DNA of 26,434 bases, from assembly GCA_004022145.1 (NCBI GenBank), contig RCNU01000026.1. One strand, given 5' to 3'. Shown here in pieces: positions 2,563 through 26,329 of the stretch. Under the pieces are notes generated by a model. That model did no database searches. It had not been told where the DNA came from and saw only the letters and a list, made by a program, of their open reading frames with translations. This DNA is from Paecilomyces variotii. Lineage: Eukaryota. A program made the position numbers and the translations under genes. The number at the start of each line of letters is the position of its first letter. Position 1 is the stretch's first letter.

Positions 2563-4358
2563 GCGGTTTCTGAGATGGGAAGACGTTTCTGAGGCTTGCA
2601 TGACTGTTTTCGATCACATATTTCCCGTTTGTTCAGGCTGGAGGATGGCGGAAAGCTTGCGATGACTTCTCCGATGCTCTGTTCACACACTGTACGGTTG
2701 CTATGCGATCCATGGATGTAGATGGTTTTTTATTCTGAAGGGAAAAAAGCAAAAGGATTGACAGCATCTAGCGCGGAGTCAATAAAAAAAGCGACCCATT
2801 CACCAGTCATCTTTCCCGCGACGCCACGAGAGTCCGCGTAGAATGACCGTAATCGATCCAAATACCACTTTACAATTTGCAGTCGATAGCAAGCCACATA
2901 ATAGTGAGAAAAATGTCTTATGCTGAAATCATATACCCCTCACTTTCTGCGAATATGTCGAACGACCTAGAGACAAAATTCAACATGCAAAATGTAAACA
3001 GAAACCATTCCCTCGTATTATGAGGCTTTCGTAGAGCAGTACCATGGGAGTCATGAGACCTAAATATCTAGAGAACCTAGAGAGATCTTTTGTGACACCT
3101 GAACCGAGTTTTCCTCAAGCAAAAGACGATATGTGGTATAGTTGGTACAGCCAACATCCCAGTAAAAGTCGTCTATTGCATTTATCCTCGATAAACAGAA
3201 CTCTATCTTCTAAAAAGGACCAAGTCGGAGACCTCGCAACACCCTTGGCAGTTCACGCAGATACTTCTTTTTGGTCGTTCAGTAAAGACGCGGTGTACCT
3301 TGAGACTCACAAGATAACAGGAACTGAGATTCCAGTCCACTCCTAGTACGTGTAGCTGAATAAAGAGGAGAGAGATCTACATGGACTCTTGGCATTTCTC
3401 GTACTATTTAGATCCACACGGTTGATTTGTTCGAGATAATATGCAGGATATATCTTGCAATCCTGATCTCTGGATCTGTTAATTTCTTCTCGACTGCATC
3501 GCAAGTCATTTGCAAATAGTCAGATGGAGGAAAAGAAAGAATCTAGTCAATCTGGTAATGATGACTGTCTTTTCTTTTAGTAGACTGCTAGTCTTGTAGA
3601 TGTCTTTGCTTCACAGGAGACCTTGCATAGTGAAAGGCAACCCAGGAGTGTTTTTCTTCTAGATTGGAAAGACCAAAAGGCTGGTAGGGAGCTCTTCTAG
3701 TAAGGAGGGCCTCACTTGAGATAGATGCTAACAACTTCTTAGAAATAGCTATTCAGCTAAATAACCTTATGTTTCAGCGGTTTCTTCTGCCACTGTAAGT
3801 GGTTAAACCTCGAATTATCTCTTAGGCTTTCAAGATACATGCCATCAGCGTGTCGGAACCGGTATAACTATCCTCGATGGCCAGTCAAGCTCCCTAACTG
3901 GCTCAGAGCCATAAAATCCATGTGTATATGTCTCTATGCATACAGAGAAACAGGCCCTGATATTATCATTTAGTCTAAAGAAGATACGAGTATGGACTGG
4001 AGGTTTACTCGTAGCTCCTGATCAGTCTACTATTTGTGTTCCTTCCAATAATAATAAAGACATGCAAGAAGTGAAATCCCAGACAGACGGCTGCCACCGC
4101 CTTGAGTGACGTGAAGTGTTGTGGGCTCAAGTTATTTTTTCCTTTCACGAGTGTATATTGCACTTTCACTGCACTGTGTTCCCATCCTTTACCAGTGTCC
4201 CCTATTTCATGACACCAGGATAGATATCATTATCTGTATCCCAGTACATACAGTGCTGTATTGTACAGGGTGACTGTACTATTTATCTCGTCTGGATCGC
4301 AGCCCCTTTGGCCTTGGATTATCGAGACGTGAAACTATTCTGGCTTTCCACCTTCAAA

Positions 4359-6167
4359 ATGCGAGATATGGAGACTGACCCTCTCTGGGAGGATACCCTT
4401 ATGGGTGGTGCATTCTGGAAAGAACAAGATAAGAAGGACCGGTTCTATAACGAGCTCTGGGAAGATACTCTTATGGGTGCGGAGTTCTGGCGAGAGGAGG
4501 ACAGAAATAATCCCTATGACACTACCTATCATGTGCAGTATTCCGGCATATTCTTTCCTGGTAAGTTCTATATGCGGGTCTGCATTAACTGCCATGTTCT
4601 CTCGGCGTCCTAATCTGGATACTTTCACGCCCATTGTTGCCTATGTCTCCTGAGAAACACATCTAATAACTCTCCTTATCAGTTGCCTTGCAGAAACATA
4701 TCCTGGAGGGGGGCAGTATGGACAGGGACACCCTCCGCGGAATAATCTCCTCTGACAACAGCATGGGTGCAAGACAGGCCGTGCTTGCCCATACAAACAA
4801 TAAAGAGAACACCGAGCTGAACGAGGCTCTGTACAAAGAGCGCCGCTCTAGCATGAGCGATCTGGGTTCACTCAAATCTGGACCCTTCTCTGCTGCGTCC
4901 AAGAGACACTTCTGGGATTTCAGCAAGAAGGCCTACGAGGAACCTGTCACTAGCAACAAGGGCCATACTAGGACAGGCAGATCTCTCATCCGTTCTGCCT
5001 TTGGATCCTCTGCTATTCGCAGCAAGAGTGTCCAGCATGAAGACTCCAGATTTGATTTTGGCTTTGACCCCCATCCAGGCAGTGAAGAGAACCCTCTCTT
5101 GTACTTCAGGGGTGGGGCTTCTTGGAAGTATATCGAGCGTAACCTCGATGTCCTCTGTCTCGATTTGTTTTGGCCTATCAAACAGAAAGCTTCCACTGAG
5201 AACGACATGATTAAAGTCGCAGAGCTTCGTCCCCTGTGCACTTTCCGCCATCTACGCGTCCTGAAACTCACTGGCATGATGCAGTCTTACCAGACTATGA
5301 TATGGCAGGTCGTCTGGCTTAACCCCGACTTGGAAGAGCTTGACCTCGAGATGGCGTTGGAACCGTGCATTAGACGCGGCTTTAATGGTTACTGGACGTC
5401 TATCAGTCCCGGCTGGAAAATTGCGGAGAAGGATGAGCACAAGCCCGTATACTAGTAAGTTTACTCTCCCTCTTTCTTGTTCTTTTTCCTTCTCCTTTTC
5501 TTGTTCTATGCCTGAGGAACAAGAAGCAGTTCGGTTCAGATATCAATAACATATTATGGTCAACAGTGGCAATGGCGATGGTAATATTCACAATGACATT
5601 GGCACCGGCGAGTACCTCGACAAGAGAATCATTGAATCCTCGAGACTTCTCGCGAGAATGATGGGCCCGACCAACAGTCGCCTTTCCGTCGTGGTCATCA
5701 GACTTGCTGGATTTGTTGTCGACGGAGATCCGTTCGATCTCTGGTTCGAGCCGCACAGACTCCGTCGTATCCAATTCAAGCATAACTGCGTCGACGCCGG
5801 GTTCTATCTCGGCGAGTTCATGAAGGACACAGTTGAAGTGATCTTTCCTAAAAAGGCCGTGCCCAACACCGCCCAAATTGGCAGAGTCGTCGACTTAGCC
5901 AAGGAGCTCAAAGTTATCGAGCTCCGCAAAGGCAGGAAGATCAGTGAAGCTCCCTATTATCCTCCTGGTGGCTTTCAAAAGGCCTGTTGTCACCATCGTC
6001 ACGACGACCAGATGCCGGCCGAACCATCCAGTCATCGCAAGGGTAAAGAGAACGAGCACTCTTGCTGCAAGAAAACTGACGCTGGCGCTCATGGAGGCAA
6101 AGGCATCAACGCAGACCACCGTGGAGTGGCCACTGGAGGTAAGCACAAAGAATACAGTACTGATTAG
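4359..6167 (+). CDS. Uncharacterised fungal protein (LRR-like LxxLxL segments, N-terminal 24-aa repeat, His/Cys-rich tail)
   Basis: ATG 4359; exons 4359-4560, 4683-5454, 5567-6167 join three ORF-track ORFs in frame through gtaagt donors at 4561 and 5455 and cag acceptors. Contains FRHLRVLKLTG and LEELDLEMALEP. Confidence 0.75.
4383..4505 (+). repeat. 72-nt (24-aa) period internal duplication in coding exon 1
   Basis: ctctgggaggatacccttatgggt... at 4383 and ctctgggaagatactcttatgggt... at 4455; peptides LWEDTLMGGAFWKEQDK and LWEDTLMGAEFWREEDR. Confidence 0.9.
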
Positions 6168-6719
6168 ACATGAACTGAACAGTGTCTAGGAGAAGAATCC
6201 GACAACTCGACCGACAGAAAGAAAGGTACTGAGCTATCCAGGGGTAACCTTGCACTCAAATCCCCCCGTCAGGCGTCTATGGCAACTGCTGCCCCTCGCC
6301 CCAAGGGCGCTCCACGCCACGGACGTAACGCAATTGTCCCCCGTATGGTGGGCAAGCTCGCGCAGAAGGGCAAGTCGACCGTTGAGAAGGAGTGATTCAT
6401 GGTTCACTGGTTCACTTGAACGTTGCTGACAGATTGTCACGACTTTGTTTATCCCTACTCTTTCCAGTATCCGGTTTATCCGTGATCCGTTTTACATGCC
6501 CATCGGGTCCCCTTCGCGGGTTGATCTGAGCATAGCTGAAGCTAATTGCCACACGAGATAGTGATTTCAAATCCTGATATTTCTTCTAAAGTCTATATCC
6601 TCGTACTCATATGGCCCTCTGAAGATGCCCGCGCGGAAAAAGCATAGAACAGAGATCCCAGTATCACATAGAGACTCATAAGCATCTAGCTCAAAACTAC
6701 ATAAGGCACAGTACCCCAG

Positions 6720-8719
6720 TCATTTCTCAACAATATGCTCTTGCAATTCAGCAGTGGGTTTCACGTCATCCTCAACCGAGCCGTGGCCACTTGCGCGGTT
6801 CTTGCGTAACTCACGGGCAACCTTCCGAGCAGACCTTCCTGGTTGAGTATAGAGATAATCGATCTCTTCAAGAGTCAGGTTTGCCGTCTCCGGATAGAAG
6901 AAGTATATGAGTGGAATGAATGCCAGATTCGTGCACATGAAGATCAGGTATGCCTTCCATTGGAGATGGGAGATGATAACTGGGGTTATCATGACGATGA
7001 CGAAGTTCTGTGAAGGGGCATGTTAGAAGCGACCCATTGATTGATTTCAGGGTGAGCAACAAAAGTCCTAATTTTGAACGTACCCAAAGCCAGTTCGAAG
7101 AGATTCCGATGGCGGTGCCCTTTGCTCTGGCCTGAAGAGGAAGGATTTCTGGTACATAAACCCAAGGGATGCAGTTCACGGATGCACCGAAGATAAGCAT
7201 GTACTGTGATGTTAGTTAGCCTGGCGTATCTCATATAGGTATGATAAGAGGGACTGACAGTGAAGAAGAATGCCACGCTAGCTGTCGAAGTCTCTTTCTC
7301 TACAGAGGAGCCCTTGAAACTCAGCAGAACGGATATCAACATCATGGAAATCCCGAGTCCGAGTGAACCCCACATCATGGGCTGCCGACGGCCGATGCGG
7401 TCGACTAACAGTGAAGGCACGAAGGACCCAATCACAAACATGCATTGTATCCTATAAACCTGTCAATAAGTGTTGCCCATTGCTTCTGTCGGGAGAGTTG
7501 TGGCTTACACTCCACCAAGAAGCAGTGAGAGGTTGCGCGATAGACCGACATTGTCTTGCAAGACGGTGGGTACAAAGTAGCTATTTCTAATCAGAATAGT
7601 CTTCTTAAAGACGAGAGGTGAACGGTTATGCTTACACGACTAGGTTAATACCGCCGACTTGGTTCATGAATTGCATACCGTAGGCCAGAAGTACTCGCTT
7701 TCCAGTCTGGACCTCGTCCTGCTTAAAGATGTCGAACCAAGTTTTGGACTCATGGCTCTCTAGCTGGATAGCAAGCAAAATATCTGCTTGCTCCTTGAGG
7801 ATTTCAGGATGGTCAGGATCCTTATCGTATACAGTACACAAGACATTCAACGCTTCTTCGTTTCGGCCCTTGTTATACAGGTAGCGAGGTGATTCTGGCA
7901 AGCCAAAGACTAGCAAGATCACAACCTGGCGTTCTTAGTTGGTATAATTACTATAATCATGGGAAGAATTATGGGAAGCATCATGGGGACATACGAAGGT
8001 GAAGAGGACTTGGCACGCAACTGGTAGTCTCCAGGCGATTGAGCTGTCAAGGAAATGCAGTCCATAATCAAACCAATATGCTATGAACGAGATCAGTATT
8101 TAATCGAATTTACCCCATAGTCTGAGAGCTCACCAATAACTATGCCAACACCGACAAATAATGCTTCTGAACAGACGAGTCGGCCTCTCTGGTGGGCATG
8201 AGAGAGCTCTGCTTGATACATCGGCACAGTAGATGTTTCGATACCAGTCCCAATGCCCGTGACATAGCGGCCGATCATCAAATGAGGAACTGAGAATGCT
8301 GAAGCCTGTAGCGATGCTCCAACCTAGGATTTGTCAGCGCTGGTAAGGCTCTCCGAATATATATACTTTGAGAACATACGATAATCCAAGCCATAGCAAC
8401 CCACATGGCACGTCGTCGACCAAGCATCTCTCCGAAGATGAACGCGAGAATGCAGCCACTGAAACATCCCAAATTGTATATACTGACGATTATACCAAGA
8501 TATGCATCTTTAGGGTCACCCATCACCCTCAGGAAATCCGAGTTCCCGACAATGCCTGAGAACACTCCCTGGTCATACCCTTTCCGCTGATTAGTACGGA
8601 ATCATGTCTTTGAGAATGGACATTGAAGGAAACTTACCAAACAGAATGAATGCCATTTCACAGGCAACTGTAATGGCCAAACGCAGCTTCCAGCCGCGGC
8701 CGAAAAGGTTGAACTCCAT
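6720..8719 (-). CDS. MFS sugar porter, STL1-like sugar/polyol:H+ symporter
   Basis: Nine exons splice in frame: MEFNLFGRGWKLRLAITVACEMAFILFGYDQGVFSG...GEMLGRRR...VPMYQAE...AWRLP...LPESPR...QFMNQVGGINLVVYF...DRIGRR...PWVYVPEILPLQARAKG...NWLWNF...YPET...LEEID. These are sugar porter signature motifs. Confidence 0.93.
7956..7991. repeat. Degenerate 12-bp x3 tandem repeat inside a transporter intron
   Basis: atcatgggaaga / attatgggaagc / atcatggggaca. Confidence 0.6.
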
Positions 8720-9716
8720 CTTTGATACGTAGGTACAGTTACGCGTTGCGTTGGTAGAAGCCCCACGTGCATAATCTATACAACATAGAACGATACGGAG
8801 AAAGTGAGGAAGTGACCAGCGTTTGGGGAGATAATCATCCTCTGGGAAATCCCTGAATTATATTTCAAAATTTCCAATATCTGAAGGGAGGAGACCATGT
8901 CGATCTCTCTCACTCGCCGGAATAACGCCATAATGGCAAGGCCTCATCCCCGACAACAACATCCCGTGCGGCGAGTTCCATTACCACACTACTCTTTCCC
9001 CGGAAACTGACAGGTTGTAGGGGTTGATATTACCCCAGATCTGCGCCCACGTTTTGCAGAAGTTGAAAAGGATGCACCATGACGCATAGCGCGGACTACA
9101 GTTACAGATGCTACCGTCAAGCTGAAACCTTGTTTTTCGCGCATGGGGAATTGCGGTTACTAAGGAATCAGCTAGTGACACGAGACCCTGCAGTCAGTCG
9201 GCAATATTTCCCTCAAAGGAGGAATTGTTGAGCATTCTTGGCCTCGGAAGATGGCCGATATGCGTCGGGGAGAAGTTGAGTTGCACACGAGCGTGGCGAT
9301 CCGTCAGGCGATCAGATCGTAACGGCGCTACTACTTGCCATTCCAGGAGATATCCATATTAGGAAGGCTGAAGCCACCAATCATCATATATTTCACCTGC
9401 CAATACATCTGAGCGAGACTGTTGAATGCCTACGATGCGGGATATTAGCAGCCAAGGGAACGCATGAATACTATATGGGATCGGCAAGACAGCGTGATGC
9501 CGTACTTTCTATCGTTGAGAGATGGGATTTATCCGAAGGCCAAACTTGGTACAGCAGGTACTAACTTAGCACATTGGCCAAGATCATGAGAAGGTGGTGT
9601 GCTCCCATGATATTAACTGTGCGAGGTTTTGTATTATCGGGAATATATGGAGCGTTGGATTAAATAATATGCTACTCGTGGTGTTATGCTAACTATGCCC
9701 AGGCTGCAATATCTTA

Positions 9717-11167
9717 CTAATTTTGGAACAGTTCAAGGCCAACATCAGTATCATCAACTATATGGACTTTGATACTTCCTTTGCTAGTATCTGAGCATAG
9801 ATGGAGAGCGTCTGCAGCATTATCAAGTGTAAAAGTGTGTGTGATCAACTTTTTCAGATCGAGGATTTTCCCGTCCAAACATGCGATGCCAGCTGGCCAG
9901 GTATCGTGGTAACGGTTGATGAATTTCAGATTGATCTTATGTGTGACAATGAGTTAGCGACGTTTTACATCATTTTTTTTTGTACTGTATGATCTTACCT
10001 CTGCTAAGGAGATATGCATGAATGGTAGGTTGTTCATTATGGATTTCCCAACACCGATAACCATCACTGTACCGCCTCTTCGTACTGCATACGCAGCAGT
10101 ACAGACACTGCTTTCCACCCCGGTACATTCTAGAACCGTGGATGGTGCGAAGTATTCCTCGTTCCCAAACAGAGCTCGAACAGCCTTCGCGTTTCCCGCT
10201 GCGTCTAGGGAAGGGTTGACCATGTATGTCTTACAGCTTGGGACGAACTCTTGAGCGAATGCTAAGCGACGAGGCTCCAAATCTGTGATGACTATTGGGT
10301 GTGCCCCCGACGCGCGTGCAGCTGCCAGCGCTATGAGACCAATAGGTCCTGCACCACAGATGAGAGCTCCCCGACCGAGGGATAATCCAGCAGTGTTTAT
10401 ACCGTGCATGACCACTGAGAGAGGTTCAAGAAGGGCTCCTTCTGCGAAGCTGACACTATCTGGAAGTCTATAATTGTTAGCGCGCAATGCTATATGTATA
10501 AATGAAGCGCAATATTTACTTGTGCAGCCACTTAGCTGATTGGACCTTGAACCTTTGAATTGTTCCATGGTAGGGCCATACTCCAGCAAACTGGACATCC
10601 TCACAAAGATTATAGCGACCTTCGCGACATAAGAAACAATTTCCACAGGAAACTCCTGGTTCAAGCGCGACTCGGTCACCTAGATACAATTTAACTTAGC
10701 AAAAACACATGATGTATTCTAGAATACCTCCTTCCTTACCTGGCTTAAAATTAGCGACGTTCTCCCCACATTGAAGCACAACCCCAGCAGCCTCGTGGCC
10801 TATGATACAATCACTCTTGAATTCGAGGGGCCCAATCCTTCCAGATTTCCAGAAATGAATATCTGACCTATGTGGGATACTCTCAGCAACTATCTTCGCA
10901 ATAAATGGAATGTCTCAGGCCAGCTTACCCGCAGACTCCTGTCGCTTTAATATGCAACAGAACTTCCCCAGGTCCAGGTTGATATATTGGAGCATCGACA
11001 AGTTTCAGTTGATGATCTGGCGTTACTTGCAAGGATGGATTGCGATATGGCCCCAGTTTCGATTTATCAGCCAATTCATGCTCTTCGACGATAGCTTTTG
11101 CTTTGGAGATCCATTCACCTTGAGCGCCGGATTCACTGGCCTGTTCAAGGATGACATACGGGGCCAT
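9717..11167 (-). CDS. Zinc-dependent medium-chain polyol dehydrogenase (L-arabinitol 4-dehydrogenase / sorbitol-galactitol DH family)
   Basis: Five exons: ATGVCGSDIHFW, GHEAAG (catalytic Zn), GDRVALEPGVSCGNCFLCREGRYNLC (structural Zn), EGALLEPLSV, GAGPIG Rossmann motif, TD acidic residue (NAD-type), NRYHDTWP, LITHTF, GSIKVHI; stop TAG at 9717-9719. Confidence 0.93.
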
Positions 11168-11901
11168 AGCTATAACTCAAGAATATGGGAGAAAGATCGA
11201 TCGAGAAGTTTGCTCAAGAAAAGGACAGGGACTTATCGCAACAGTCTGGAAATTAGTTCATGATATAAGACCCCGGGATACTTTCAGTGCTTCCGCGAAG
11301 GATCCAAGAGTCTAGGCTATCTCCTGCACTACCTATCTATCCACATCAGAATCCATGTGGACAACTTAGAAAGCCTTTTGGTCCGTAAGCAAGCTCTGGT
11401 GAGAGCCTATTTGGCGTGGCAGCTCATCTGATTACCTATCTTGTGGAGATTGGTGATACAGCGAAACCGGTTGGTGAAGGATTTCTAATCGTTGCAAAAT
11501 TAGGTACATACGTAGCATGCAGCGGCGCTTAGAGATTCTGTTTCGGGGAGTAATCCCATATTCACTCTACATGTAAGGCAGGCTGTTGCGCTGGACAGCC
11601 TTTTCTGCGCAAAATAATCTGTTATCGAATAGGTCGTTAGATGGCTCCAATATCCACAGGCTGTAGTATGGAGAGTCTGGACCACAATCTGACAACTAGT
11701 TCTAGTAGCAAGAGCATTGCAACATTCGTATCCTTAGGGCTAAGGAGCAGATTTTCCAGCGTCTTTGTCTTAGAATATTTAGTATAATTATCCTAGCAGA
11801 GCCTTCAGAGTGTTAGAAGTGCTATTGACCCACAAATATAATTTCGACTAAGTACGGTGACAAACAGTTATCCGCAAGAGCGAAAGCGTGCAACATCAAC
11901 A

Positions 11902-14170
11902 ATGCAACATTTAACGGAAGATGAAGACCACGTCCTGAGGACTCTCCGAGTCCTGATCGCTGACCTCTGCCAGCAGTTCAATGGGGGACATCCAGGGTAG
12001 AGTGATTTCTGCGTATGTAACATGACGAACATATGTCCTAATTCGTTCCTTATCTAGAGGAGCTATGGGAATGGCTGCGGTCGGGGTGGCATTATGGAAA
12101 TATGTTATGCAATATGCACCACATACTGCGGACTTCTTTAACCGTGACAGATTTGTTCTCTCCAACGGTAAAGACCAGAAAAGATGCCTTGCACTATAGC
12201 TACTGTATTAAATGCTGACGCGATGCCAAAATTAGGACATACCTGCTTGTTTCAGTACATCTTTCTTCATCTCACCGGATACAAACCCATGACTCTCGAC
12301 CAGCTAAAATCATACCACTCAGATCGTGCAGACAGCCTGTGTCCAGGACACCCTGAAATTGAGATCGAGGGAGTAGAAGTCACAACGGGTCCGCTCGGGC
12401 AAGGTGTCGCAAATGCAGTTGGTCTCGCTATAGCGACAAAGAATCTTGCGGCAACCTACAATAGACCTGGATATGATGTCGTGTCAAACCATACTTGGTG
12501 TATGGTGGGAGATGCCTGTTTACAAGAAGGCGTGGCTCTGGAAGCCATTTCGTTCGCGGGCCACCTGAGGTTGAACAACCTTACCATAATATACGATAAC
12601 AACCAGGTCACCTGCGATGGTTCGGTTGATTTGACCAACACAGAAGATATCAATGCGAAGATGCGTGCTTGTGCATGGGATGTCATTGACATTGGAGAAG
12701 GATGCTATGATATCCGCGGAATTGTCGCTGCTTTAAAACAGGCGAGAGCATCAATTCGGAAGCCGACATTTGTCAACGTCCGAACAGTCATTGGGGTAGG
12801 GACAGCCGTCGCAGGAGATGCCGTGGCTCATGGAGTGGCCCTTGGCGCGAATAACGTCGCGGAACTGAAAAAGGCATATGGATTCAACCCCGACGAGCAT
12901 TTTGTTATCAGTCCGACAATTCGCAAGTTCTTCGAAGACATCCCAGCACGAGGAGAGGCGCTGGTTAACAATTGGAGCAATCTTCTTGACAGATACTCTC
13001 AGGATTTCCCGGATCTTGCTGAGGAATTCCAGAGAAGAGTCAAGGGAGAACTACCCGCAGACTGGGATACGCTGGTTCCAACGAAGTTTCCATCGAAACC
13101 TACAGCTTCACGCGCAGCATCTGGGCTAGTTTTTAACCCCGTTGCCCAGAAGATCAGAACGTTCATGGTGGGAACTGCTGATCTTTCCCCGTCAGTCAAT
13201 ATGGCATATCCTGGAAAGACGGATTTCCAGCATGTGAGTCAATTGAAACATAAACCATGTCTAAGTTAAGGATCTGACATGAGTCCAGCCTGATCTGCGA
13301 ACAATTTGCGGAATTGACGGAAACTATGCAGGTCGCTATATCCATTATGGTATCCGTGAACATGCAATGTGTGCCATATCGAATGGAATCGCTGCATTCG
13401 CGCCCAATACCTTTATCCCCGTGACCTCGTCGTTTTTCATGTTCTACCTGTATGCTGCCCCAGCCGTGCGCATGGGTGCCCTCCAGCAATTACAAGTTAT
13501 ACATGCGGCGACTCATGATTCTATCGGAATGGGAGAAGATGGCCCGACCCATCAGCCCATAGAGCTGGCAGCTCTTTACAGAGCCATGCCCAACCTACTG
13601 TATATCCGGCCCGGTGATAGTGAGGAAACTGCCGGTGCCTGGATCGCAGCCATCGAGGCGAAGAAGACTCCTTCAATAATTTCGACTTCCCGACACGCTC
13701 TGCCACAACTAGCAAAAACTAAACGTGAAGGTGTCCTCCGTGGAGCGTATGTTCTCGAGGAATATCAAGGCTCCGAGGGCGCTGATGTCACAATTATTGG
13801 CGTCGGCGCAGAACTGTCTTTCGCTTTGGGAGTTTCTAAGGAATTAAAGGAGTCGAAGAATATCTGTGCCCGGGTAGTCAGCTTTCCTTGTCAGCGACTT
13901 TTCGAAGAGCAACCAGTCTCTTACAGGCGCGAAACGCTACGACGCCACAAGGACATCCCAGCTGTCGTGATCGAGCCGTATGCTCCTAATGGCTGGGAGA
14001 GATATGCTGATGCAGCTATTTGCATGACGAGATTCGGACATAGCCTTCCAGGGAAGTCTGCTTACAAGTACTTCGGTTTCGAGACAAGCAAGATGACAGA
14101 GAAGATATCCAGGTATCTTTCTGACATCAAAGAGGATGAGATTCTGAGGGGCGAGTTTGTGCAACTCTAA
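11902..14170 (+). CDS. Transketolase, dihydroxyacetone synthase (DAS)-like subtype
   Basis: Four exons: MQHLTEDEDHVLRTLRVLIADLCQQFNGGHPGGAMGMA...NRDRFVLSNGHTCLFQY...PGHPE...TTGPLGQG...GDACLQEG..YDNN (TPP-binding motif)...YGIREHAM...THDSIGMGEDGPTHQP. Confidence 0.95.
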
Positions 14171-14309
14171 TATTATCGCAAGGTGTTAATAACTGTGGAA
14201 TGATGAGATAGACATAACCATTTAGTGAATAGATATATGAGAAACAAATTGCAAAAGACCCCAAAAGAATTATCGTTCCAGTGGTACTTATTTAGTGCAT
14301 GGATGTGGT

Positions 14310-14334
14310 GTGGAGTGAATCTGCGGGGCTCCGC
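14310..14334. promoter_or_regulatory. Cluster of three CreA consensus sites (SYGGRG)
   Basis: GTGGAG 14310-14315, GCGGGG 14323-14328 and CTCCGC (GCGGAG on the minus strand) 14329-14334, ~150 bp upstream of the TF ATG at 14481. Confidence 0.45.
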
Positions 14335-14480
14335 GGGCGCCACTTTTGACTCAAGACCGACCGTATCTTGCTGGGTGCGTAAGTACAGTTTTGATCCACA
14401 CATACATACCTCAAGCTACGAGGCATCGCCGTACCATTAGGATTTCTGGGTCTCTTGTCGAATATGCCAATTGATAACCC

Positions 14481-15989
14481 ATGGACCGGTTATCGATGGA
14501 ACATAACAGACAGCAGAGATCATCCTACACTGCTCTTTCACGAGATGAACAATGCTTCGAATTCGAGAATAACCATGAACTTGCATCACCTCTAACTAAG
14601 ATAAACCTCGATCAATTTATTCAGGATCCGGTATACCTGCAGTCACAGGAGACACTCCGCTCTTTGCTCTTCAGTACCGCCCAATCCACGGTGCCAACTA
14701 GAGCTCCTAGTCCCGTACAGGATGGTCAACCCCATACTATCTCGTCTCGTGGTATTTTGTCAAGCAGAAAGAGAATAGAATACCTGAAAAACTACGTTGC
14801 AGAAGTTGCTCCTTGGGTACGTTATGATGCTCATTTGCTCCGAGGCCATTACGAGTTGTATTGGCTAACTGACACAAAAGCTTGATATGTTCGATATGCA
14901 GCGCACCTTTGGTATCAAGATTATGGATATGTCTCAGAACTGCCCTGCTCTATTCTATGCTATCCTGGCTCTTTCATCAAGGCAGTTGGAACGAAAGAAT
15001 GAGATTCGCGATGTTTATGACAGTTTGGAGCTCTACCAGGAAGCAATTCGCCTTGTTACCCCGCTTCTTCATGCTAGGCATCTGGATGCACTCATTGTGT
15101 GCGTGATTCTATGCTGCCTTGAGATGATGTCTGCCAGTGCCAAAGACTGGAGGCGGCATCTTGAAGGATGTGCGGCATTATTTGATACTTTCAACATAAA
15201 TGGGTTCAGTGGCGGGGTATTGCAGGCGGTATTTTGGTGCTACGCTAGGATGGGTAAGTCATAGTATCTACTGACCTTTAACTAATGGTCCGGTTCTCAT
15301 TATATACAGATCTGTGCGGAGCGCTCATCTCTGATGGCACTGAGAGTACGCTCCTTCGTTTGGAGAAATGGCTGCCGCCTGGGACGCACGAGAATAAAGC
15401 GCGGAAGCTGTTCTCCGAAGCTGGATCTAATGATATGTATGCAAATTATGCTGTATACCTTTGCTCAAAAGTATGCGATTTGATCGCCGATCGTACGAAG
15501 TACACTGAACTCGGTGAAGATAATGGCTGTTCCACAGATGTGTTCGCGGAACGGTGGATGCGACTATGGGACGATCTTCAACTATGGATGAGAGATCGCC
15601 CTTCTGGGATTTGCCCCGTTCATGAAGCCGAGGGCGAACCATTCCCACGCGTGTTATTCGTGCACTGGGGGGCGATATCCTCCACTCAACTCATCCACAC
15701 TGCATGCATCCTCCTCCTCGACATGACTCCCCATAAGGCGCGACTTCAATCGAGTTCCAGCACCTCGAAGCTGTGGCATGCAAAACAGATATGTGGTATT
15801 TCACTGGCTAACCCGCACCACGGATGCCTAAACAATGCATTACAGCCACTGTGGATTGCTGGGCGGCTTTTTAGCCATGAGAGGGAGCATTCTTTAGTGG
15901 TGAAACTGATCCGCAGCATCGAAGCTACGACAGGCTGGGGGACCTGCTGGCGCATTTGCGATCTTGAATGTACATGGGGTTATATATAG
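14481..15989 (+). CDS. Fungal-specific transcription factor domain protein (C6/ArcA-like family) with no recognisable Zn2Cys6 cluster
   Basis: Exons ~14481-14816, 14881-15253, 15310-15989: YLKNYVAEVAPW|LDMFD...LFYAILALSSRQ...WRRHLEG...AVFWCYARM|DLCGALI...WHAKQICGISL...LQPLWIAG...TGW. The start codon is uncertain. Confidence 0.82.
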
Positions 15990-16073
15990 CCAAGTACGTA
16001 CAATGCGAGACTATGGAAAACCTGATTATTGCCTAGGCATGATGACTACCGCTCGAATACCCTGGATGTCTCG

Positions 16074-18187
16074 CTAGTTACCGTCCGCAAGTCTCCAAGT
16101 CTCATGGAGCTTAGCCAGCGGATCGTGCATATCCCACCCCGTCAGTTCTTGGATACGAAGAAACCCTTTCTCTATTTCTTTCTGTTGAGACTCGTGGGTC
16201 ATCTTTCTTGCAGCAACAAACAATGATGCAACCAGCGAGGGATCCCAGCATTCACGGCGGTCGTTGTTTAGAGCAATACCGCATATGCGATGAGCGTTCC
16301 AGAGAGGAGACATCATAACATTGTGATTATCCATGGATTTTAATGTTCGTGGTCTGCGATCAAGAAGAAGACACATGGCGGTATGGAGCATTTGGTTAGC
16401 AAATACGGCCGCGGAATTCGTGAAGAGTATCATTGGAAATGGGTTGACAGTTTCGGCCATCTCTGGAGTTGAAGAAAGTTCGAGCATCGGCCAGAACCCC
16501 TGCGGGCGATTCTTGTACCAGTCACCAAGACTTGCAACTAACATCTTCCACCTCTCTACGAATTTCTCTGGGCCCGTTGGTTGGAGCGGTGATTCTGTTT
16601 CCAGAGTCGCGCTTTGGAGCTGGACAGCCTGCGCACAAAGAATAAGGATGTACTGACTATGACGAAACACGACATCCAAGTGCGATTGCATGGCAGCCGC
16701 TGGGGCATGGACGTTCGCGTGAATCGGAACTCGCAATGTCGTATTATTAGTGAGTGCGCTGCTAATATCTACACGGAAACTCAGCTCAGTCTCCTTGCAT
16801 TGTTCGCTGTCGGTAGGACTTACCTATTCTAAGAAGGAGGCCATAAACTGCAGCCATCAGAACTGGCTCCCAGGGATTGGTAGAGACCGTAACAACAGAC
16901 TCGATCTCTTTAGCAATCTTCATCCGTGTATCGGAAAGCCTTGATGAAAGATGATAGACTACCCTTAGCACTGCAGCCACTGTTCGGTGCAGATTATTGG
17001 TTGCTTTTTCTATGTTCCGATATGACTCGGAGATGTCTACATATTTGTTTGCATCTGAGCGAAAAGTTGAAGGCGACGAGTCTAGTGAAGCCAGGGACTT
17101 TGCGGAGACAGCAAGCAATGCGTAAAGCAGCTCTCGTGATGCCATTGCCATCCGCGAAACCAATATGCCGAAAGAGTGTGACATGTCATATATATCCAAC
17201 TACGGCAATTAGCATGGAAATACTCGTCATCTTCCAGTGAAACTCACCCACGGAGCAATCTCATAACGGAAATGCTTGAGGAGTTCGAGGACTTGTTCCG
17301 AGTTTGTGTCTTGCGCAGAAACAAGATTGCCGGAGGAAACAGCCGAGCTCATACAGGCCGCTGCGGTAGGATTTAAAGACAGACATGAAGTCTGCTGAAC
17401 CGATACAGATAAATTTATATTCTCTGTAGGATGAGTTTCCATAGTCGAGTGTCCTAGTGCGAGTAGATCGTGGACGGCAGATTCTTCGTAGTGCTCGCCA
17501 AAGGAACTCCGACTTGATAGTCCAGAGGGGTTTCGCAGTAGGTGACGTGGATCTAAAGAAGATCTTACATTCAAGCCAACATCTCTTATCTCTTGCCCTG
17601 TAGCTGGATGAAGGTGCGAGGTAAAGCCGGTCTGGGATATTGTATTTTCGCCGCTAAGCCCAATGCTTTCTGCATTCTGTGCCTGAGAGCAGCTCTTGAC
17701 GAATGGGCTGATATTTTCACCGTGGATATTCGCATTCTGGGGTCTGTCTGGAGGAATCTCTGCCACAAACTTCAATGATGTCAATGACTAGAACTTTGGT
17801 ATGGGATAATATTACTGCTCGAAAACGTACCTGCACCGAGTTGTATCGATGATTGTCGCCTTCATGTGCGGCTGTAGATTGATCTAGCGTGTGCGCATTT
17901 TTCGAGAGAAAACTCAATCGAGTTCCGTAGACACATTCGAGATTCCTACTTCTGCAGCTGTGGCATACTGGCCTCTCCTCATCGCCTATGTTGCGATCAG
18001 TCTCTCCCCCTTATCGTACCCGAAATGGGCTCGACAGAGGGCGTCCGGTAGAAACAATATGCCCCTCTTTGCGGGTCACAGTTTCGCAACGGCGGGGCTT
18101 ACACTTGCGCTTTCTAGCACGGCATCTCAAGCATCCTGTTCGTGTCCTCCTGCGGGTTTGTCCAATACCTCGATCCCTATCACACAT
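16074..18187 (-). CDS. Zn(II)2Cys6 transcription factor
   Basis: ATG 18187; the first intron splits the cluster RTRTGCLRCRARKRK|CDEERPVCHSCRSRNLEC. Later exons give HFRYEIAPW|LDIYD...LLYALLAVSA...WNAHRICGIALNND...CWDPSLVASL...LTGW; stop at 16074. Confidence 0.9.
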
Positions 18188-18342
18188 GGCCGATTACTGT
18201 AATGCTCGATTGAGTTGATGTAGGTGGAGAGTGATGATGCGAGGATGCTTATTCTTGCTCGAAAGGAACTCGGAAGGGGGACAGATCGGCTCTAAGACGA
18301 TTGGCTGTCGACCAAATTGAGAAACTTCTACTTAGCACCGCT

Positions 18343-18522
18343 CGGAATTGTCACTGCTTTAAAACGCGCAAGAGCATCAATTCGGAAGCCGACATTTATC
18401 AATATTAAATGTCCGAACAGTCATTGGGGTAGGGACTGCCGTTGCAGGAGATGCCGCAGCTCATGGAGTGGCCCTTGGCACGAATAATGGATTTGAAAAA
18501 GGCATATGGATTCAACCCCGAC
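18343..18522 (+). pseudogene. Decayed direct-repeat copy of an internal transketolase segment (source 12717-12894)
   Basis: Shares long exact runs with the source (agagcatcaattcggaagccgacattt; gtccgaacagtcattggggtagggac; gctcatggagtggcccttggc; tgaaaaaggcatatggattcaaccccgac), with one small insertion, one small deletion and several transitions. Confidence 0.93.
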
Positions 18523-18711
18523 TAATAATAACTAGCCAAAGCCACAGTTCGCTTGCCCGCTCCGCGATCTAAGTATCTTGGTGCCAAGAACTAGGTACCT
18601 ATACTATCTTTATATTCTGGTCTGGGCATTCCCACCTAGCTCCGACGACCTGTTTATTCTTCCATCTCACTTCAGCCCTCGCCCTAGAAATTCTCAACAA
18701 TACTACCCAAC

Positions 18712-19656
18712 ATGGTTGTCAATCCCAAAAAGAACTCCTTCGGAGACGAAATCACCGTCTGGACAGAGTTTCAGCTACCCAAGAGCGAAAAGTTCAGGGG
18801 TAAGAAATGGTCCGATTTCTTCCTTCTCATTCGGACGACACCTGGGCAGGGCTACTCCTGGTGGGGCCCGGTGCTAGAGCGTCAAGATCCTTATAATAAT
18901 ACTATGCTTCTGGTGCAAGGTATGTGTCCTTCCCAAACACGGATACCCAAAGCAAGAAAAATCGCTCAAAAAATCCTTTGATATTTAGTTTATGCATCAC
19001 ATGAGGCACTATTGCAATTTAGAGAATCGGACCAGTATGAAAAATATTGGTCAATCCTCTCGGAAGTCTCGGGCCCCAAGGTTCGCTTATTCCGTGCGCG
19101 CTCTCTAAGGCTTTTGACCTCTCTGAGAAAAGGCACTGCGCTAGTGACTGCCTATTTCCCGTGGCCTGTCAGCCAGTCGCAGAGGGAATCGGTCATTAAA
19201 CTCGAGGGGATCTGGGGTTTTGGTCTCGGGATGAGAGCAGCTCATCTTGCTCCTATGCATCATCCTTACAATATCAAATTGTGGGCAATGGAACCAGAGC
19301 AGAGAAATGGCCAGAAGGTACAGGCTATGGTCTGGTTGCATCCATGGAAAGATGCTGAGAAAGAGCGCAAACATAAAAGCCAGGAGGCTTTCTTCGAAGC
19401 TCTGCGTAGAAACATGAATAAGGAGGACTTGACAGGTATGGAGAAGGTCTATCAAGGACTAGAAGATACAGGAGCTATTGAGTACATAGAAGAACATTGC
19501 GCGTTTGAACTTATTCCCGATGTGAATGTGGCCAGGGATAGGTCACTGGACTCCGAAGGCAGTGATGGAGATACAAGTGTACATATTATCTTCTCTCTAT
19601 TTGCGTGTATTTCTCTGCTTTTATGTTTATGGCGGTTCTGTGCTAGCTTGTCATGA
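18712..19656 (+). CDS. Hypothetical protein, possible dimeric alpha/beta-barrel (ABM-like) fold, hydrophobic C-terminal segment
   Basis: Exons 18712-18919 and 18989-19656 join in frame (gtatgt..tttag). TPGQGYSWWGPVLERQD...LLVQVYASHEALLQFRESDQY resembles the fungal ABM-like pattern; the C-terminus is IIFSLFACISLLLCLW. Confidence 0.65.
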
Positions 19657-20158
19657 AAGAGTCACAATCTTTGCCGAACCATCCTCAAAACTCCATTTCT
19701 GTCCTCTGCAAGAAATACCAATATCCGACGCAAAACCAAACATGGTTTTCTGAGTTTCTATGAACGAGCTCTGTATAAGTATAACCTGCGGGGTTGCCAT
19801 CTCCAGGATTCCGATCGTCATATGAAGTCCATCCTGGTACTTGATTCTGGCTCCTCGTTATAAGACTGACGATCTCTTCATTAAGGTTAAAACTTACCTC
19901 GCCATTTGAATGTGATGATGTTATATATAACTTCAACAGAAAGCTTTTTATGTATTCACTGTAGAACATCCTGAAATTTTATCGAATCTGTTCCTGGCAT
20001 CTAACCTTATTTTCCCAACCGAGTCACCGATTGAAGTTTTATTCGAGTTCCTTATAGGTACCTATCTACAGAAATATTATATTTTTGGGGAAAATACACC
20101 TAGAAACCAGCATCAGGCGTCTTTAGTATTGTCAGTGAAAAAAATTATTTCCCAAAAC

Positions 20159-21651
20159 CTATTTCTGTGTCAAGTCAAGAAAATTAACGACCTTTCTTCC
20201 GGTGGCACTTCGATGAAACCCTCCATAATCAGGCAAATACTTCAAATCAAACAGCTCCTCGTTATTCTCAAACACCCTGAAAAATGTTCGCAATTCCTGC
20301 GTTAGCTCTTTCTCACCAATCTTACCCGGCCCATAGTCTCGTAGCAGACGCAGCTCAAGAACAATATCCAGATGATTACAGTCCCCTTCTCTGTAACGCC
20401 GAATAATCTGGTACTGCAAAATTCCCCACGATTCTGTTCTCATTTTGGCCTGTACTTGGGAGAATTCAAAATACTCCCCATACCAGTCAAAGCTGATTCG
20501 TCTGTCACGCCCATATATCCGTGCTATCCTATAGTGAGCTGCATCCTCAGGGGAAATCCTGTCCTTGATAATACTTGACAAAGAATGAAGAGAGCAGACA
20601 TCCCCACAGACATAACGGACAAGAGGATTGCGTAGTCGCTGTAGTGAAGTTTGAACAAGTAGGCCTTTTTCACCGTCAGGGACTGGCTGAAAATCGCGGT
20701 TGCTTGATTTGTTCGGATCCTCAATGGAAAAGGGTAAGACCTCAAGGTGTATAAGGCGATCATCGAACACAAAATCAGCGTAATTCTGATCTGCCGAGAT
20801 ATCTGTAAGTTCTACTGGCGAGGCACCCCATGGACCTGCCTCTGCACTGCCAATAACCGATGACACGGCTATGTTGGGAAAGACAGATTTCAGAAATCTG
20901 CGCTGAGACGGGGTCATGGGCTCGGATGTGTATAGGGCCTTGTCGACTGCCAACTGTTTCCTCTTCTCCTCCGGGAGGGTTGAAACATATCTGGCTAGCT
21001 GCGTGATTTGGCCTGCATCACCAGAAATTGCATTCACGCGATATTCAATGATTGTTTGGACAACCTGATCCTGCTCCATCTCACTTCCTGCACAGAGGAC
21101 TGTGGCCCCTGATCCTTCAAATACTTCGGCCATGAGATCCAGAGCTCTACTATTGTCAGCCTAGCTTTCCCACTTTGGATATTGGCACGCACCGATAGAG
21201 ATACCCTGCAACATGCATAGTCAACACCCAATCCCCAGGGCCCACGATGCCACAGGACCGCAGGAACGAGCCGAACACGGCTCGTTGCTGACGATTTTCA
21301 ATCGAATCCGTGGCAAAGACCATCGGAAGTCCACTTGCTGACCCTCCACCGGTTGTACTAATGTAGGTCCCTCGTCGATAACCATTCCGTGGGTCGCAGT
21401 CCGTGGTGAGTCGTGCAATCTCTTTATACCTGGCCTCGTTAGACGCGCGGAACGAAGAGGGGGCGAACTTACAATGTGTCTTTTCGAGTCAATGGGAATG
21501 ATGGCAACTTAAGCTCCTTGGGCGACTCTCTTTGCCTTTCCAAGATCATAGGTAGTTCTTCACTAGAAGGCGGGTATGTGTTATCAGAGTAGAAGGGATG
21601 AATGCTGGCTATTGCCAGCACATCGGCCATACAATAAGTATTATCGGCCAT
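20159..21651 (-). CDS. Adenylate-forming enzyme, phenylacetate-CoA ligase (PaaK)/F390-synthetase-like
   Basis: Three exons: HPFY...FPLTRKDTL|YK...YISTTGGGSASGLP (P-loop)...GYLYR|ALD...YTSEPM...GSAEAG...HLEVL...GLLVQTSLQRLRNPLVRYVCGD...IYGRD...RSATGRKV. These match the PaaK-type motifs PF, TSG, GEP, YGxxE, PxxRYxxGD, GR and the C-terminal K. Confidence 0.8.
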
Positions 21652-25892: not shown

Positions 25893-26329
25893 GACGCCTG
25901 TCAATTTGCTTCCCCTTCGCACACTGCACATGCCGGATTTCGGTTCGATAAGGCTGCAAAGTTTGGCGGCCTGTAATTCAAGCGCTAGCCGCTATTTTTG
26001 GGGGGTTCTTTTCGCAAGTCTAAGAGAAAGGGGCAAATCACGGCGCAGGATCGCTGCTACGTATACTAGCGTTCGGGTCGGTCCGCCGATTGTCGATCCT
26101 AGTTATGCAGTGGCTCAAATCCATAGGCTATCTGATCAGCCGGATCATAATTATAGGTGTATTTAGATAGCGCAGTAAATGGCAGGATTATAATAAGACC
26201 AATCCACAGTAGTTATATAGGCGGTTCGGTCTGGTTCTACCGTAGGTACATAGCGGTTTAGTTTACGATATATAGCTAACCTGGATCACGGGACCTCTGA
26301 TTACGGAGCGAAGACGTGCCCGTGCAGCA

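Follow-up and report, generated by a model that had tools for sequence, protein, structure and literature searches.

What becomes of a ketose when the gene of the polyol dehydrogenase that would form it stands back to back with that of a transketolase, and no sugar kinase is encoded beside them? The question is raised by a locus of Paecilomyces variotii (contig RCNU01000026.1), which a preliminary description had read as a self-contained polyol catabolic cluster passing its ketose directly to the transketolase. We analysed the whole stretch of 26,434 nucleotides around it, here called the window, and compared its genes with their relatives in other fungi. The locus is a real, conserved metabolic module of filamentous ascomycetes, and it is transcribed. 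Its core is a dehydrogenase, probably of the LadC type, divergent from an accessory transketolase, with a paralogous pair of Fungal_trans_2 regulators adjoining. The pair, on which we found no publications in the literature, points to an undescribed, possibly kinase-free handling of a sugar alcohol.

Results

Gene content and transcription

Reading frames, Pfam domains and RNA contigs together identify five intact, spliced and transcribed genes between positions 6720 and 18187, both of which are exact gene ends (Table 1). This bears out the gene content first described, i.e. a porter, a dehydrogenase, a divergent transketolase and two regulators, coordinates included. The RNA evidence consists of RNA-library contigs from four runs of four studies, in which joints are listed for five introns of the porter (runs X1, X2 and X5), three of the dehydrogenase, two of the first regulator (TF1) and three of the second (TF2); contig pieces imply a sixth porter intron (about 7451-7507) and one transketolase intron (13234-13288). 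The introns placed by reading frame rather than by RNA are introns 1 and 2 of the porter (by the open frame alone), intron 1 of the dehydrogenase (guided also by the GVCGSD motif), introns 1 and 2 of the transketolase (guided also by alignment to the P. variotii protein P0001) and intron 1 of TF2. The reported lack of a sugar kinase or reductase held up as well: none of the 116 stop-to-stop frames of at least 55 aa outside 6700-18200 matched such a family at E <= 0.01, a search that a kinase of very short exons might escape, and the frames inside the region matched only the families of the five genes.

Table 1. Features of the P. variotii locus, with positions in the window; poly(A)-type ends are loose ends of RNA contigs.
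Feature	Position	Strand	Details
Sugar porter	6720-8719	-	9 exons, 506 aa; stop 6720, ATG 8719; poly(A)-type end near 6559
Porter exons 1-5	8719-8638, 8579-8380, 8323-8134, 8080-7993, 7923-7636	-	
Porter exons 6-9	7580-7508, 7450-7259, 7203-7084, 7007-6720	-	
Zn-MDR polyol dehydrogenase	9717-11167	-	5 exons, 404 aa; poly(A)-type end near 9627
Dehydrogenase exons	11167-10929, 10867-10738, 10677-10520, 10467-9999, 9935-9717	-	
Dehydrogenase/transketolase divergent spacer	11168-11901		734 bp, start codon to start codon, read from sequence
Transketolase	11902-14170	+	4 exons, 694 aa; poly(A)-type end near 14266
Transketolase exons	11902-11996, 12058-12167, 12236-13233, 13289-14170	+	
TF1, Fungal_trans_2	14481-15989	+	462 aa
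TF2, Zn2Cys6 + Fungal_trans_2	16074-18187	-	about 610 aa
Transketolase gene relic	18343-18522	+	frameshifted, 185 bp; blastn match to 12717-12894

The dehydrogenase and the transketolase

The dehydrogenase carries the ADH_N and ADH_zinc_N domains of Pfam and is 97% identical over 157 aa to a 404-aa protein of P. variotii (P0122). Its best solved relative is the L-arabinitol 4-dehydrogenase (LAD) of N. crassa (314 bits; sorbitol dehydrogenases score 290 and 287 bits), and in alignment the N. crassa enzyme and human SDH match it at the GVCGSD, GHE and LEPLSV motifs and the strand end ITD. The alignment reveals a Zn-MDR fold, the catalytic Cys/His/Glu/Glu ligands and the NAD-type Asp that is typical of oxidative polyol dehydrogenases. 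The enzyme is therefore LAD-like, as first described, in its closest solved structure, but it lacks the pocket residues specific to LadA, M70 and Y318, where SDH and XDH have F/F (PMC2731777). Of 61 full-length clade members, 60 have Leu at the M70 site and all 61 have Asn at the Y318 site, as does the window enzyme at both, and with both residues replaced an identity as LadA was rejected. The dehydrogenase probably belongs to the LadC clade, a tie that runs through gene numbering: A. nidulans AN8552, named ladC (PMC4021826, Table 1), is numbered beside AN8551, the orthologue of the window transketolase (74% identity), AN8552 itself being absent among the 120 matches listed. LadC was still without an assigned function in papers from 2009 (PMC2731777) and 2021 (PMC8601170, a figure legend). 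On xylose, A. nidulans ladC shows log2 values of 0.15-0.32, as against 7.2-7.8 for xyrA, and a gene so hardly responsive to xylose (PMC4021826, Table 1) lies outside the ordinary pentose regulon.

The spliced transketolase frame is open, is 95% identical to P0001 over 693 columns and has the three-domain architecture of its family (Transketolase_N, PF00456, E 3e-99; Transket_pyr, PF02779, E 9e-41; Transketolase_C_1, PF22613, E 1e-29). The suggestion that it is not of the housekeeping type proved sound. In a quick maximum-likelihood tree of 31 rows it falls into a fungal accessory clade (16 rows, SH-aLRT 100), and canonical fungal, plant and bacterial-type representatives form a separate clade (12 rows, SH-aLRT 100). 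Many of its orthologues are named dihydroxyacetone synthase (DAS) or formaldehyde transketolase by their sources; the tree holds no yeast DAS, and "DAS clade" is database naming. Zopfia carries the accessory type together with another paralogue. Thirteen positions are fixed differently in 119 accessory-clade members and 113 canonical representatives, several of them adjoining catalytic or cofactor residues (yeast R94 to H, G158 to A, P266 to A, and LL to FQ after His69). The residues that we take to be catalytic or phosphate-binding in yeast TKL1, with positions counted on the alignment, are all identical in P0001 (H30, H69, H103, H263, E418, H469, D477, H481, R359, S386 and R528, the phosphate-binding ones being R359, S386, H469 and R528), and their motifs also occur in the window transketolase's own frames. 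Such a kept phosphate pocket would fit a phosphorylated acceptor and, equally, an ordinary phosphorylated donor. The C-terminus, -FVQL in the window, -FVEL in P0001 and -FVDL in Aspergillus proteins, does not fit the canonical PTS1 consensus, (S/A/C)(K/R/H)(L/M).

The porter and the regulators

The porter is of the Sugar_tr/MFS family (Pfam Sugar_tr on six exon frames), and one of its exons (96 aa) is 94% identical to a 506-aa P. variotii protein. It had been called STL1-like, of which the fold stands, whereas the name has a minority of automatic labels behind it: STL1 is the automatic name of two of the 120 matches listed, a far larger number go under "myo-inositol transporter 1" or "general substrate transporter", and an Atlas cluster auto-named STL1 is fifth in the ranking. 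The porters at other loci are non-orthologous to it (28-39% identity over 41-68 aa), non-orthologous sugar porters stand beside the dehydrogenase in three of the six dehydrogenase-bearing loci scanned, and in most species comparable the window porter is unlinked to the pair. No word common to the porter and dehydrogenase/transketolase promoters rose above shuffled controls. We propose that the porter, which by its family would carry a sugar or polyol, was recruited to the module in Paecilomyces. Of the cluster as originally drawn, the dehydrogenase, transketolase and regulators make up the core, and the porter, replaced by a different one beside the pair in other fungi, lies outside it.

TF1 matches PF11951 at E 1.9e-12 in an open spliced frame whose introns (14817-14880 and 15254-15309) are GT..AG joints in RNA contigs; its start is the frame's first ATG, the 5' end being unconfirmed, and neither TF1 nor its relatives from two other loci (L031, L033) gave a zinc cluster in Pfam. 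TF2, convergent with TF1, has three introns as RNA joints (16769-16823, 17200-17247 and 17770-17830) and weak Pfam matches to Zn_clus and PF11951, both on single exons. Its first intron probably lies at 17986-18102, splitting the zinc cluster, a placement chosen because it restores the pattern CX2CX6CX6CX2CX6C; the halves flank the intron and fit the Zn2Cys6 form CX2CX6CX5-12CX2CX6-8C. The two regulators are paralogues (27% identity in the C-terminal half, E 4e-26), and their family is found beside the transketolase clade at other loci also. Just upstream of TF2 sits the relic of a transketolase gene, 86% identical to its matching segment (Table 1) by blastn, with peptides spread over three frames and a Pfam match to Transketolase_N at E 0.0011.

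Conservation in other fungi

The locus tags of the transketolase and the dehydrogenase are consecutive in five named species among the matches listed, Rasamsonia emersonii and four of Penicillium, and to these the adjacent numbers of A. nidulans can be added. The dehydrogenase also lies divergent from the transketolase in 11 of 29 informative metagenome loci, each with at least 1.8 kb upstream of the transketolase; the loci were not deduplicated, and the 11 represent about eight arrangement groups. In these 11 the two tblastn matches are 589-768 bp apart, a distance that includes about 35-42 unmatched N-terminal codons of the dehydrogenase. Placement of the pair on the same contig in Zopfia (a Dothideomycete) and Coniochaeta (a Sordariomycete) suggests a wider spread beyond the Eurotiales. 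A linkage confined to this genome had been named as grounds for abandoning the first reading; since the linkage recurs elsewhere, those grounds fall away.

The transketolase clade stands without the dehydrogenase in 18 of the 29 informative loci. SDRs of the mannitol-dehydrogenase/carbonyl-reductase type adjoin the transketolase at two loci (L038, L049), SDRs lie near it at three more (L009, L019, L039), a different MDR and an AKR do so at one each (L003 and L006), and a polyol-type oxidoreductase occurs within 6.5 kb in 18 of 29 loci. A sugar-type kinase was found at one of the 33 loci scanned with Pfam, namely a Dak1 divergent from the transketolase (L004). Trichoderma species other than T. 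reesei have the accessory transketolase.

Discussion

A coupling of a polyol/ketose pair with the accessory transketolase is well supported by context, because the dehydrogenase and transketolase genes are conserved as neighbours and because other oxidoreductases, porters, regulators and once a Dak1 stand beside the transketolase elsewhere. Some sugar alcohol would be taken up and converted by the dehydrogenase, acting with NAD+ as a polyol 2-dehydrogenase, to a free ketose. The accessory transketolase would take this unphosphorylated ketose as C2 donor, with a phosphorylated aldose as acceptor, e.g. glyceraldehyde-3-P, erythrose-4-P or ribose-5-P. This would feed carbon into the pentose-phosphate pool with no kinase devoted to the task and release a short aldehyde in free form. 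We assign this kinase-free C2 transfer a probability of about 0.4; what we infer in it is that a sugar alcohol is the substrate, that flux runs from it to the ketose and that the transketolase acts directly on the free ketose. Intact genes with RNA behind them, the distinct transketolase clade with its 13 fixed positions, the distinct dehydrogenase pocket, the conserved linkage, the oxidoreductases of like function beside the transketolase in other lineages and the weak response of ladC to xylose count for it, as does the presence of a sugar-type kinase at a single scanned locus and not in the window. Against it counts a published survey (PMC2731777) that recovered no orthologue of ladC from either T. 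reesei or N. crassa, the transketolase being present in other Trichoderma. The dehydrogenase is, moreover, absent from most of the transketolase loci, the neighbouring SDRs are of an NADP-type group, usually reductive in its work, which would suit reverse flux, and the porter is mostly unlinked to the pair, non-orthologous to the porters of other loci and shares no promoter word with it.

The kept phosphate pocket, which would suit an ordinary phosphorylated donor too, also counts against a kinase-free transfer, and a kinase step exists at least in the L004 lineage, because the transketolase is paired with Dak1 there. Both observations agree with a conventional route, in which the ketose receives its phosphate from xylulokinase, hexokinase or DAK, with the kinase gene lying elsewhere, and the clustered transketolase, canonical in its catalytic residues, is an inducible isoenzyme raising pentose-phosphate capacity; fungal catabolic clusters often miss some pathway steps. 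We consider this possible but rather unlikely, as it leaves unexplained why a separate clade, with fixed differences near the active site, is kept beside the housekeeping enzyme and is placed repeatedly beside free-ketose oxidoreductases of unrelated folds, with a kinase at a single scanned locus.

The transketolase could instead work in the DAS direction, in aldehyde assimilation or detoxification, transferring C2 from xylulose-5-P to free formaldehyde or glycolaldehyde; the resulting dihydroxyacetone or erythrulose would be reduced to a polyol by the dehydrogenase or phosphorylated by DAK. SDR neighbours of the NADP-dependent ketose-reductase type and the divergent transketolase and Dak1 of L004, which mirror the yeast DAS-DAK sequence, speak for such a role, as does P. 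variotii strain No. 5, found among the matches listed and presumably a formaldehyde-resistant isolate. The clade also bears the DAS name, and a survey of the MUT pathway reports DAS orthologues in Pezizomycotina (PMC3866509). We nevertheless judge this direction improbable: the transketolase ends in -VQL rather than in a canonical PTS1 such as the peroxisomal yeast DAS has, domain search of the window gave neither an alcohol oxidase nor a formaldehyde dehydrogenase nor a catalase, and an uptake-type porter with a dedicated regulator pair fits the catabolism of an external substrate better. By the general rule, the NAD-type Asp of the dehydrogenase is also typical of oxidative enzymes.

Transketolase loci without the dehydrogenase, a porter that varies by lineage and the lack of a common promoter word in the window would all be expected if the linkage reflected a bidirectional promoter or historical accident, with the two enzymes in different processes. 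This is more doubtful still, given that the divergent order recurs with a similar spacer throughout the named Eurotiales and in about eight metagenome arrangement groups, that the same-contig pairs of Zopfia and Coniochaeta suggest a wider spread, and that an analogous oxidoreductase often replaces the missing dehydrogenase. Finally, the window comes from Paecilomyces, which produces cornexistin. A self-resistance copy against this transketolase-inhibiting herbicide, which binds the enzyme (PMC7614749), is scarcely credible, as many genera not known as producers have a clade member (70-78% identity) and the dehydrogenase partner, and domain search of the 26-kb window turned up neither a polyketide synthase nor any further biosynthetic domain.

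The preferred, kinase-free reading can be set beside several known systems. Fungal pentose and galactose catabolism (LadA, LadB, XdhA, SdhA, xylulokinase, TktA) shares the Zn-MDR fold, zinc ligands and NAD-type fingerprint, and it likewise turns a polyol into a free ketose ahead of the pentose-phosphate pathway, a role that the window enzyme would have by homology. It differs in that the window dehydrogenase is probably of the LadC type, with Leu/Asn for Met70/Tyr318 and a ladC counterpart hardly responsive to xylose (PMC4021826), and in that the canonical genes are not clustered with a transketolase and their pathway requires a kinase. The xylulose-monophosphate pathway of methylotrophic yeasts (DAS with DAK) also employs a specialised transketolase paralogue with one unphosphorylated partner; the window clade carries the DAS name, and the related locus L004 pairs its transketolase with Dak1. 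In the window, however, an NAD-type polyol dehydrogenase stands where the yeasts have a kinase, alcohol oxidase and catalase are missing and the transketolase has no canonical peroxisomal signal; to our knowledge, the mould P. variotii is not a methylotroph of the yeast DAS/DAK type. The erythritol cluster of Yarrowia lipolytica (EYD1 dehydrogenase, EYK1 erythrulose kinase, isomerases and the EUF1 regulator) resembles the locus in grouping a polyol dehydrogenase with a regulator and downstream enzymes around a free ketose, erythrulose. There erythrulose is phosphorylated and isomerised with no transketolase, whereas the window has a transketolase and neither kinase nor isomerase. In the bacterial D-apiose transketolase pathway and the sulfoquinovose sulfo-TK pathway a dedicated transketolase splits an unusual ketose, which serves it as the donor of C2, and we know of no fungal counterpart. 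Their transketolases are unrelated or split and their substrates bear phosphate or sulfonate, but they share with the P. variotii locus a pathway-specific transketolase within a catabolic gene cluster.

Gene content of the locus

Five intact genes lie between 6720 and 18187, as read from the frames, from Pfam domains and from RNA-library contigs of four public runs placed on 6000-19500 (see table). A Sugar_tr/MFS sugar porter is followed by a medium-chain polyol dehydrogenase and by an accessory transketolase (TKT), the latter two being divergent with 734 bp between them, and by two Fungal_trans_2 regulators, TF1 and TF2. The TKT and dehydrogenase frames are 95% and 97% identical to P. variotii proteins. 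The two regulators are paralogues, with C-terminal halves that share 27% identity (E 4e-26); no zinc cluster was detectable in TF1. Thirteen introns coincide with listed RNA-contig joints with GT..AG or CT..AC ends and two more were recovered via contig pieces, while porter introns 1-2, dehydrogenase intron 1, TKT introns 1-2 and TF2 intron 1 were placed by reading frame and homology only. Poly(A)-type ends occur in the RNA contigs near 6559, 9627 and 14266. The depths and gaps of these contigs (e.g. run X8, in which the porter and the dehydrogenase are uncovered) are unusable for co-expression.

The preliminary description had named these five genes, and the ends it gave to the cluster fall exactly on the porter stop codon and the TF2 start codon. 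It had also stated that the window holds no sugar kinase or reductase, and this was confirmed in the flanks, where none of 116 frames (stop to stop, 55 aa or longer) outside 6700-18200 matches a sugar kinase or reductase family (Pfam, E <= 0.01). The left flank carries an Mpv17/PMP22 gene and the gene for ribosomal protein S2 (S5 domains), and on the right are a gene with weak AMP-binding likeness, a dioxygenase of the TauD type and several frames that match no family; the downstream neighbours in 18688-26166 may be a separate small-molecule cluster.

Positions of the genes and other features in the window
Feature	Position	Strand	Details
Two long open frames	4670-6167	+	261 and 205 aa; between ribosomal protein S2 and porter; no Pfam match
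Sugar_tr/MFS porter	8719-6720	-	506 aa, nine exons
Zinc-dependent medium-chain polyol dehydrogenase	11167-9717	-	404 aa, five exons
Transketolase TKT	11902-14170	+	694 aa, four exons
Gap in RNA contigs	13864-13924		61 nt inside TKT exon 4; CT..AC ends
TF1	14481-15989	+	462 aa, Fungal_trans_2 domain
TF2	18187-16074	-	~610 aa, Zn2Cys6 cluster interrupted by first intron
TKT-gene relic	18343-18522	+	185 bp, frameshifted; 86% identity to 12717-12894
Spliced gene without known family	18688-19656		intron 18920-18988
AMP-binding-like gene (weak)	20162-21702	-	
Two-frame gene	22387-24303	+	600 codons, no Pfam match
TauD/TfdA dioxygenase	25044-25889	+	

Two further features concern the TKT gene. The stretch within exon 4 that is skipped by RNA contigs of runs X1, X2 and X8 has an unambiguous position, and its CT..AC ends, the signature of a minus-strand intron, suggest a spliced antisense transcript across the 3' part of the gene. 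The relic just upstream of TF2 was left by a partial duplication at the locus.

The transketolase

The P. variotii orthologue of TKT (P0001) can be aligned with yeast TKL1 over the whole length. Counted on this alignment, and using a residue list which we take to be that of the catalytic and phosphate-binding positions of yeast TKL1, it keeps His30, His69, His103, His263, Glu418, His469, Asp477 and His481 as well as the phosphate-binding Arg359, Ser386 and Arg528, and the window's own frames have the same motifs. Since these residues are kept, TKT is predicted to be a functional TPP enzyme with binding retained for one phosphorylated sugar or more.

TKT is an accessory and not the housekeeping transketolase. 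A quick, midpoint-rooted maximum-likelihood tree of 31 rows places it with Pezizomycotina proteins in a clade of 16 (SH-aLRT 100). The 12 rows of a separate clade include a 'transketolase' from a basidiomycete, a group from green algae and representatives of bacterial type. Thirteen positions are fixed differently between 119 clade members and 113 canonical representatives. Several of them adjoin catalytic or cofactor residues: the two residues after His69, yeast Arg94 (His in the clade), the residue preceding the Pro-Gly-His103 motif, Gly158 (Ala), Ile191 (Cys), Pro266 (Ala) and two residues before the Ser386 loop. Many proteins of the clade are named 'dihydroxyacetone synthase' (DAS) or 'formaldehyde transketolase' by their sources, and our label 'DAS clade' is taken from these names. 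The H. polymorpha genome paper reports DAS orthologues in Pezizomycotina and their vertical descent (PMC3866509). The C-terminus of TKT (-VQL) lacks a canonical peroxisomal signal. Two proteins considered as canonical transketolases, P0245 of Fusarium and P0246 of Zopfia, were rejected and are other divergent paralogues, because both are further from the solved transketolases than the query is (no match at E <= 1e-150).

The dehydrogenase

The best solved relative of the dehydrogenase is the N. crassa L-arabinitol 4-dehydrogenase (LadA; 314 bits), with the sorbitol dehydrogenases of sheep (290 bits) and human (287 bits) slightly behind. The window enzyme has the zinc ligands and also an Asp of the NAD type. 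Two pocket residues divide LadA (Met70, Tyr318) from sorbitol and xylitol dehydrogenases (Phe, Phe) according to PMC2731777. At these positions the window dehydrogenase has Leu and Asn, as do 60 of 61 and all 61 full-length members of its clade, respectively, the profile expected of an enzyme with a third specificity. Most probably this clade is LadC, since A. nidulans AN8552, named ladC (PMC4021826, Table 1), is numbered beside AN8551, which is among the matches listed as an orthologue of the window TKT. Since 2009 or earlier, LadC has figured among the LadA homologues with no function assigned. The A. nidulans gene shows little response to xylose (log2 0.15-0.32 vs 7.2-7.8 for xyrA; PMC4021826).

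Conservation of the gene pair and its regulators

Among the matches listed, TKT and dehydrogenase have consecutive locus tags in five species, namely Rasamsonia emersonii (3037/3038), Penicillium chrysogenum (5896/5897), P. atrosanguineum (2771/2770), Penicillium sp. IBT 18751x (11116/11117) and P. frequentans (13256/13257). Eight further species, including Zopfia (Dothideomycetes) and Coniochaeta (Sordariomycetes), show equal longest-contig sizes for the two genes, while TKT and dehydrogenase lie on separate contigs in three Penicillium species. Scanning metagenome contigs with P0001 returned 80 loci. In 56 of them the encoded TKT reaches 52% identity or more, and 24 loci at 38-45% identity were set aside. 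The informative set consists of the 29 loci among the 56 that have at least 1.8 kb upstream. A dehydrogenase of the window type (59-77% identity) stands divergently upstream of TKT in 11 of the 29, across a spacer similar in size to the window's; these loci, which are not deduplicated, make up about eight arrangement groups. All 11 belong to the 20 loci with a TKT identity of 64% or more, and none to the nine more distant ones. The linkage seen in the window is conserved in other fungi.

The regulator pair is conserved too. The window's order TKT-TF1-TF2 recurs in three loci (L007, L016, L031), in L033 the pair is placed on the dehydrogenase's far side, and a Fungal_trans_2 gene adjoins TKT in at least 12 loci. 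Promoter words were sought as well. The porter promoter and the dehydrogenase-TKT spacer share one 10-mer (shuffle mean 1.1), which is not above the shuffled controls. The word ATGCGGGG, which we take to be CreA-like from the CreA-type GCGGGG core consensus, is conserved in the spacer of six of nine lineage groups (L007, L008, L010, L021, L023, L024), ~410-467 bp upstream of the TKT start; it says nothing on the window locus because it is absent from the window, as it is from L031.

Other oxidoreductases and porters near the transketolase

Where the dehydrogenase is missing, the same clade of TKT tends to have other polyol/ketose-type oxidoreductases nearby. Altogether, a polyol-type oxidoreductase lies within 6.5 kb in 18 of the 29 informative loci. 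Short-chain dehydrogenases (SDRs) occur in L009, L019, L038, L039 and L049, a different medium-chain dehydrogenase (MDR) in L003 and an aldo-keto reductase in L006. The L038 and L049 SDRs are closest to a fungal NADP-dependent mannitol dehydrogenase and Candida carbonyl reductases. L049 (2792-14709) is a variant cluster comprising a sugar porter, the mannitol-dehydrogenase-type SDR, a Fungal_trans_2 regulator, a DAS-clade TKT and a second sugar porter; L050 shares its SDR pattern, seen by tblastn only, and neither holds an MDR dehydrogenase.

Six dehydrogenase-bearing loci were scanned by Pfam (L007, L021, L026, L029, L031, L033), and three of them (L026, L029, L031) have a sugar porter beside the dehydrogenase. 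These porters are mutually orthologous (76-91% identity) and are not orthologous to the window porter (28-39% over 41-68 aa), whose family is unlinked to the TKT-dehydrogenase pair in most comparable species; a possible exception is Rhizodiscina, in which the porter and the pair proteins have the same contig size.

Proposed role of the cluster

The comparative context says that the TKT clade works with an enzyme interconverting a free polyol and a free ketose, so that the coupling inferred in the preliminary description is borne out beyond one locus. Uptake and dedicated regulation often accompany the clade, and a kinase almost never does. We regard it as a fungal catabolic cluster whose pairing of enzymes is unusual, and tentatively favour a kinase-free catabolic route via TKT and a free ketose, at a probability of about 40%. 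On its residues, the intact phosphate pocket would fit equally well a phosphorylated acceptor, as this route has it, or a phosphorylated donor, as in the DAS direction or ordinary transketolase chemistry. A conventional route served by a kinase encoded elsewhere is conceivable if somewhat doubtful; a sugar-type kinase was found in only one of 33 Pfam-scanned loci (a Dak1 gene in L004), these scans covering frames of at least 140-150 aa, from which intron-rich genes can escape. Use in the direction of aldehyde assimilation, with which the pocket is also compatible, seems distinctly unlikely. That the genes are uncoupled neighbours is very unlikely. Cornexistin does target transketolase (PMC7614749), but a self-resistance role for TKT can be dismissed, since the clade and its dehydrogenase partner are widespread and biosynthetic genes are absent from the window.

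A specific and general form of the kinase-free route, which we consider speculative and on balance unlikely, is a kinase-independent 'transketolase shunt' for small polyols in filamentous ascomycetes, formed by LadC and the DAS-clade TKT. LadC would oxidise a tetritol (e.g. erythritol or L-threitol) to L-erythrulose or, alternatively, a pentitol to D-xylulose. In the next step the free ketose would serve the TKT as C2 donor, with glyceraldehyde-3-P or a different aldose phosphate as acceptor, and glycolaldehyde (or glyceraldehyde) would be freed with no ATP spent. If so, ladC and the mould 'DAS', both of them orphan genes with wide conservation, would receive functions, and the pentose-phosphate pathway would gain a new entry under the control of two Fungal_trans_2 regulators acting as a heteromeric pair.

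A literature search covering few subscription journals and no supplements found no publication that links ladC with TKT or gives either a function; a report may exist elsewhere. The mould 'dihydroxyacetone synthase' owes its annotation solely to similarity. With a conserved, co-located pair that has regulators of its own, two orphan genes become a single pathway hypothesis open to testing. Should TKT accept a free ketose, this ATP-free entry would be new in fungi and would bear on the natural use of polyols (erythritol, threitol, pentitols), on transketolase biocatalysis and on strains producing polyols or rare sugars, in which an unnoticed catabolic route lowers yields.

One locus allows comparison with a known system. 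In L004, a Dak1-domain dihydroxyacetone kinase gene (3308-4810, minus strand) is divergent from a DAS-clade TKT (75% identity) at 6075-7800, and the kinase stands in place of the dehydrogenase partner, which is absent. This pairing of TKT with Dak1 mirrors the sequence of DAS and dihydroxyacetone kinase (DAK) in yeast.
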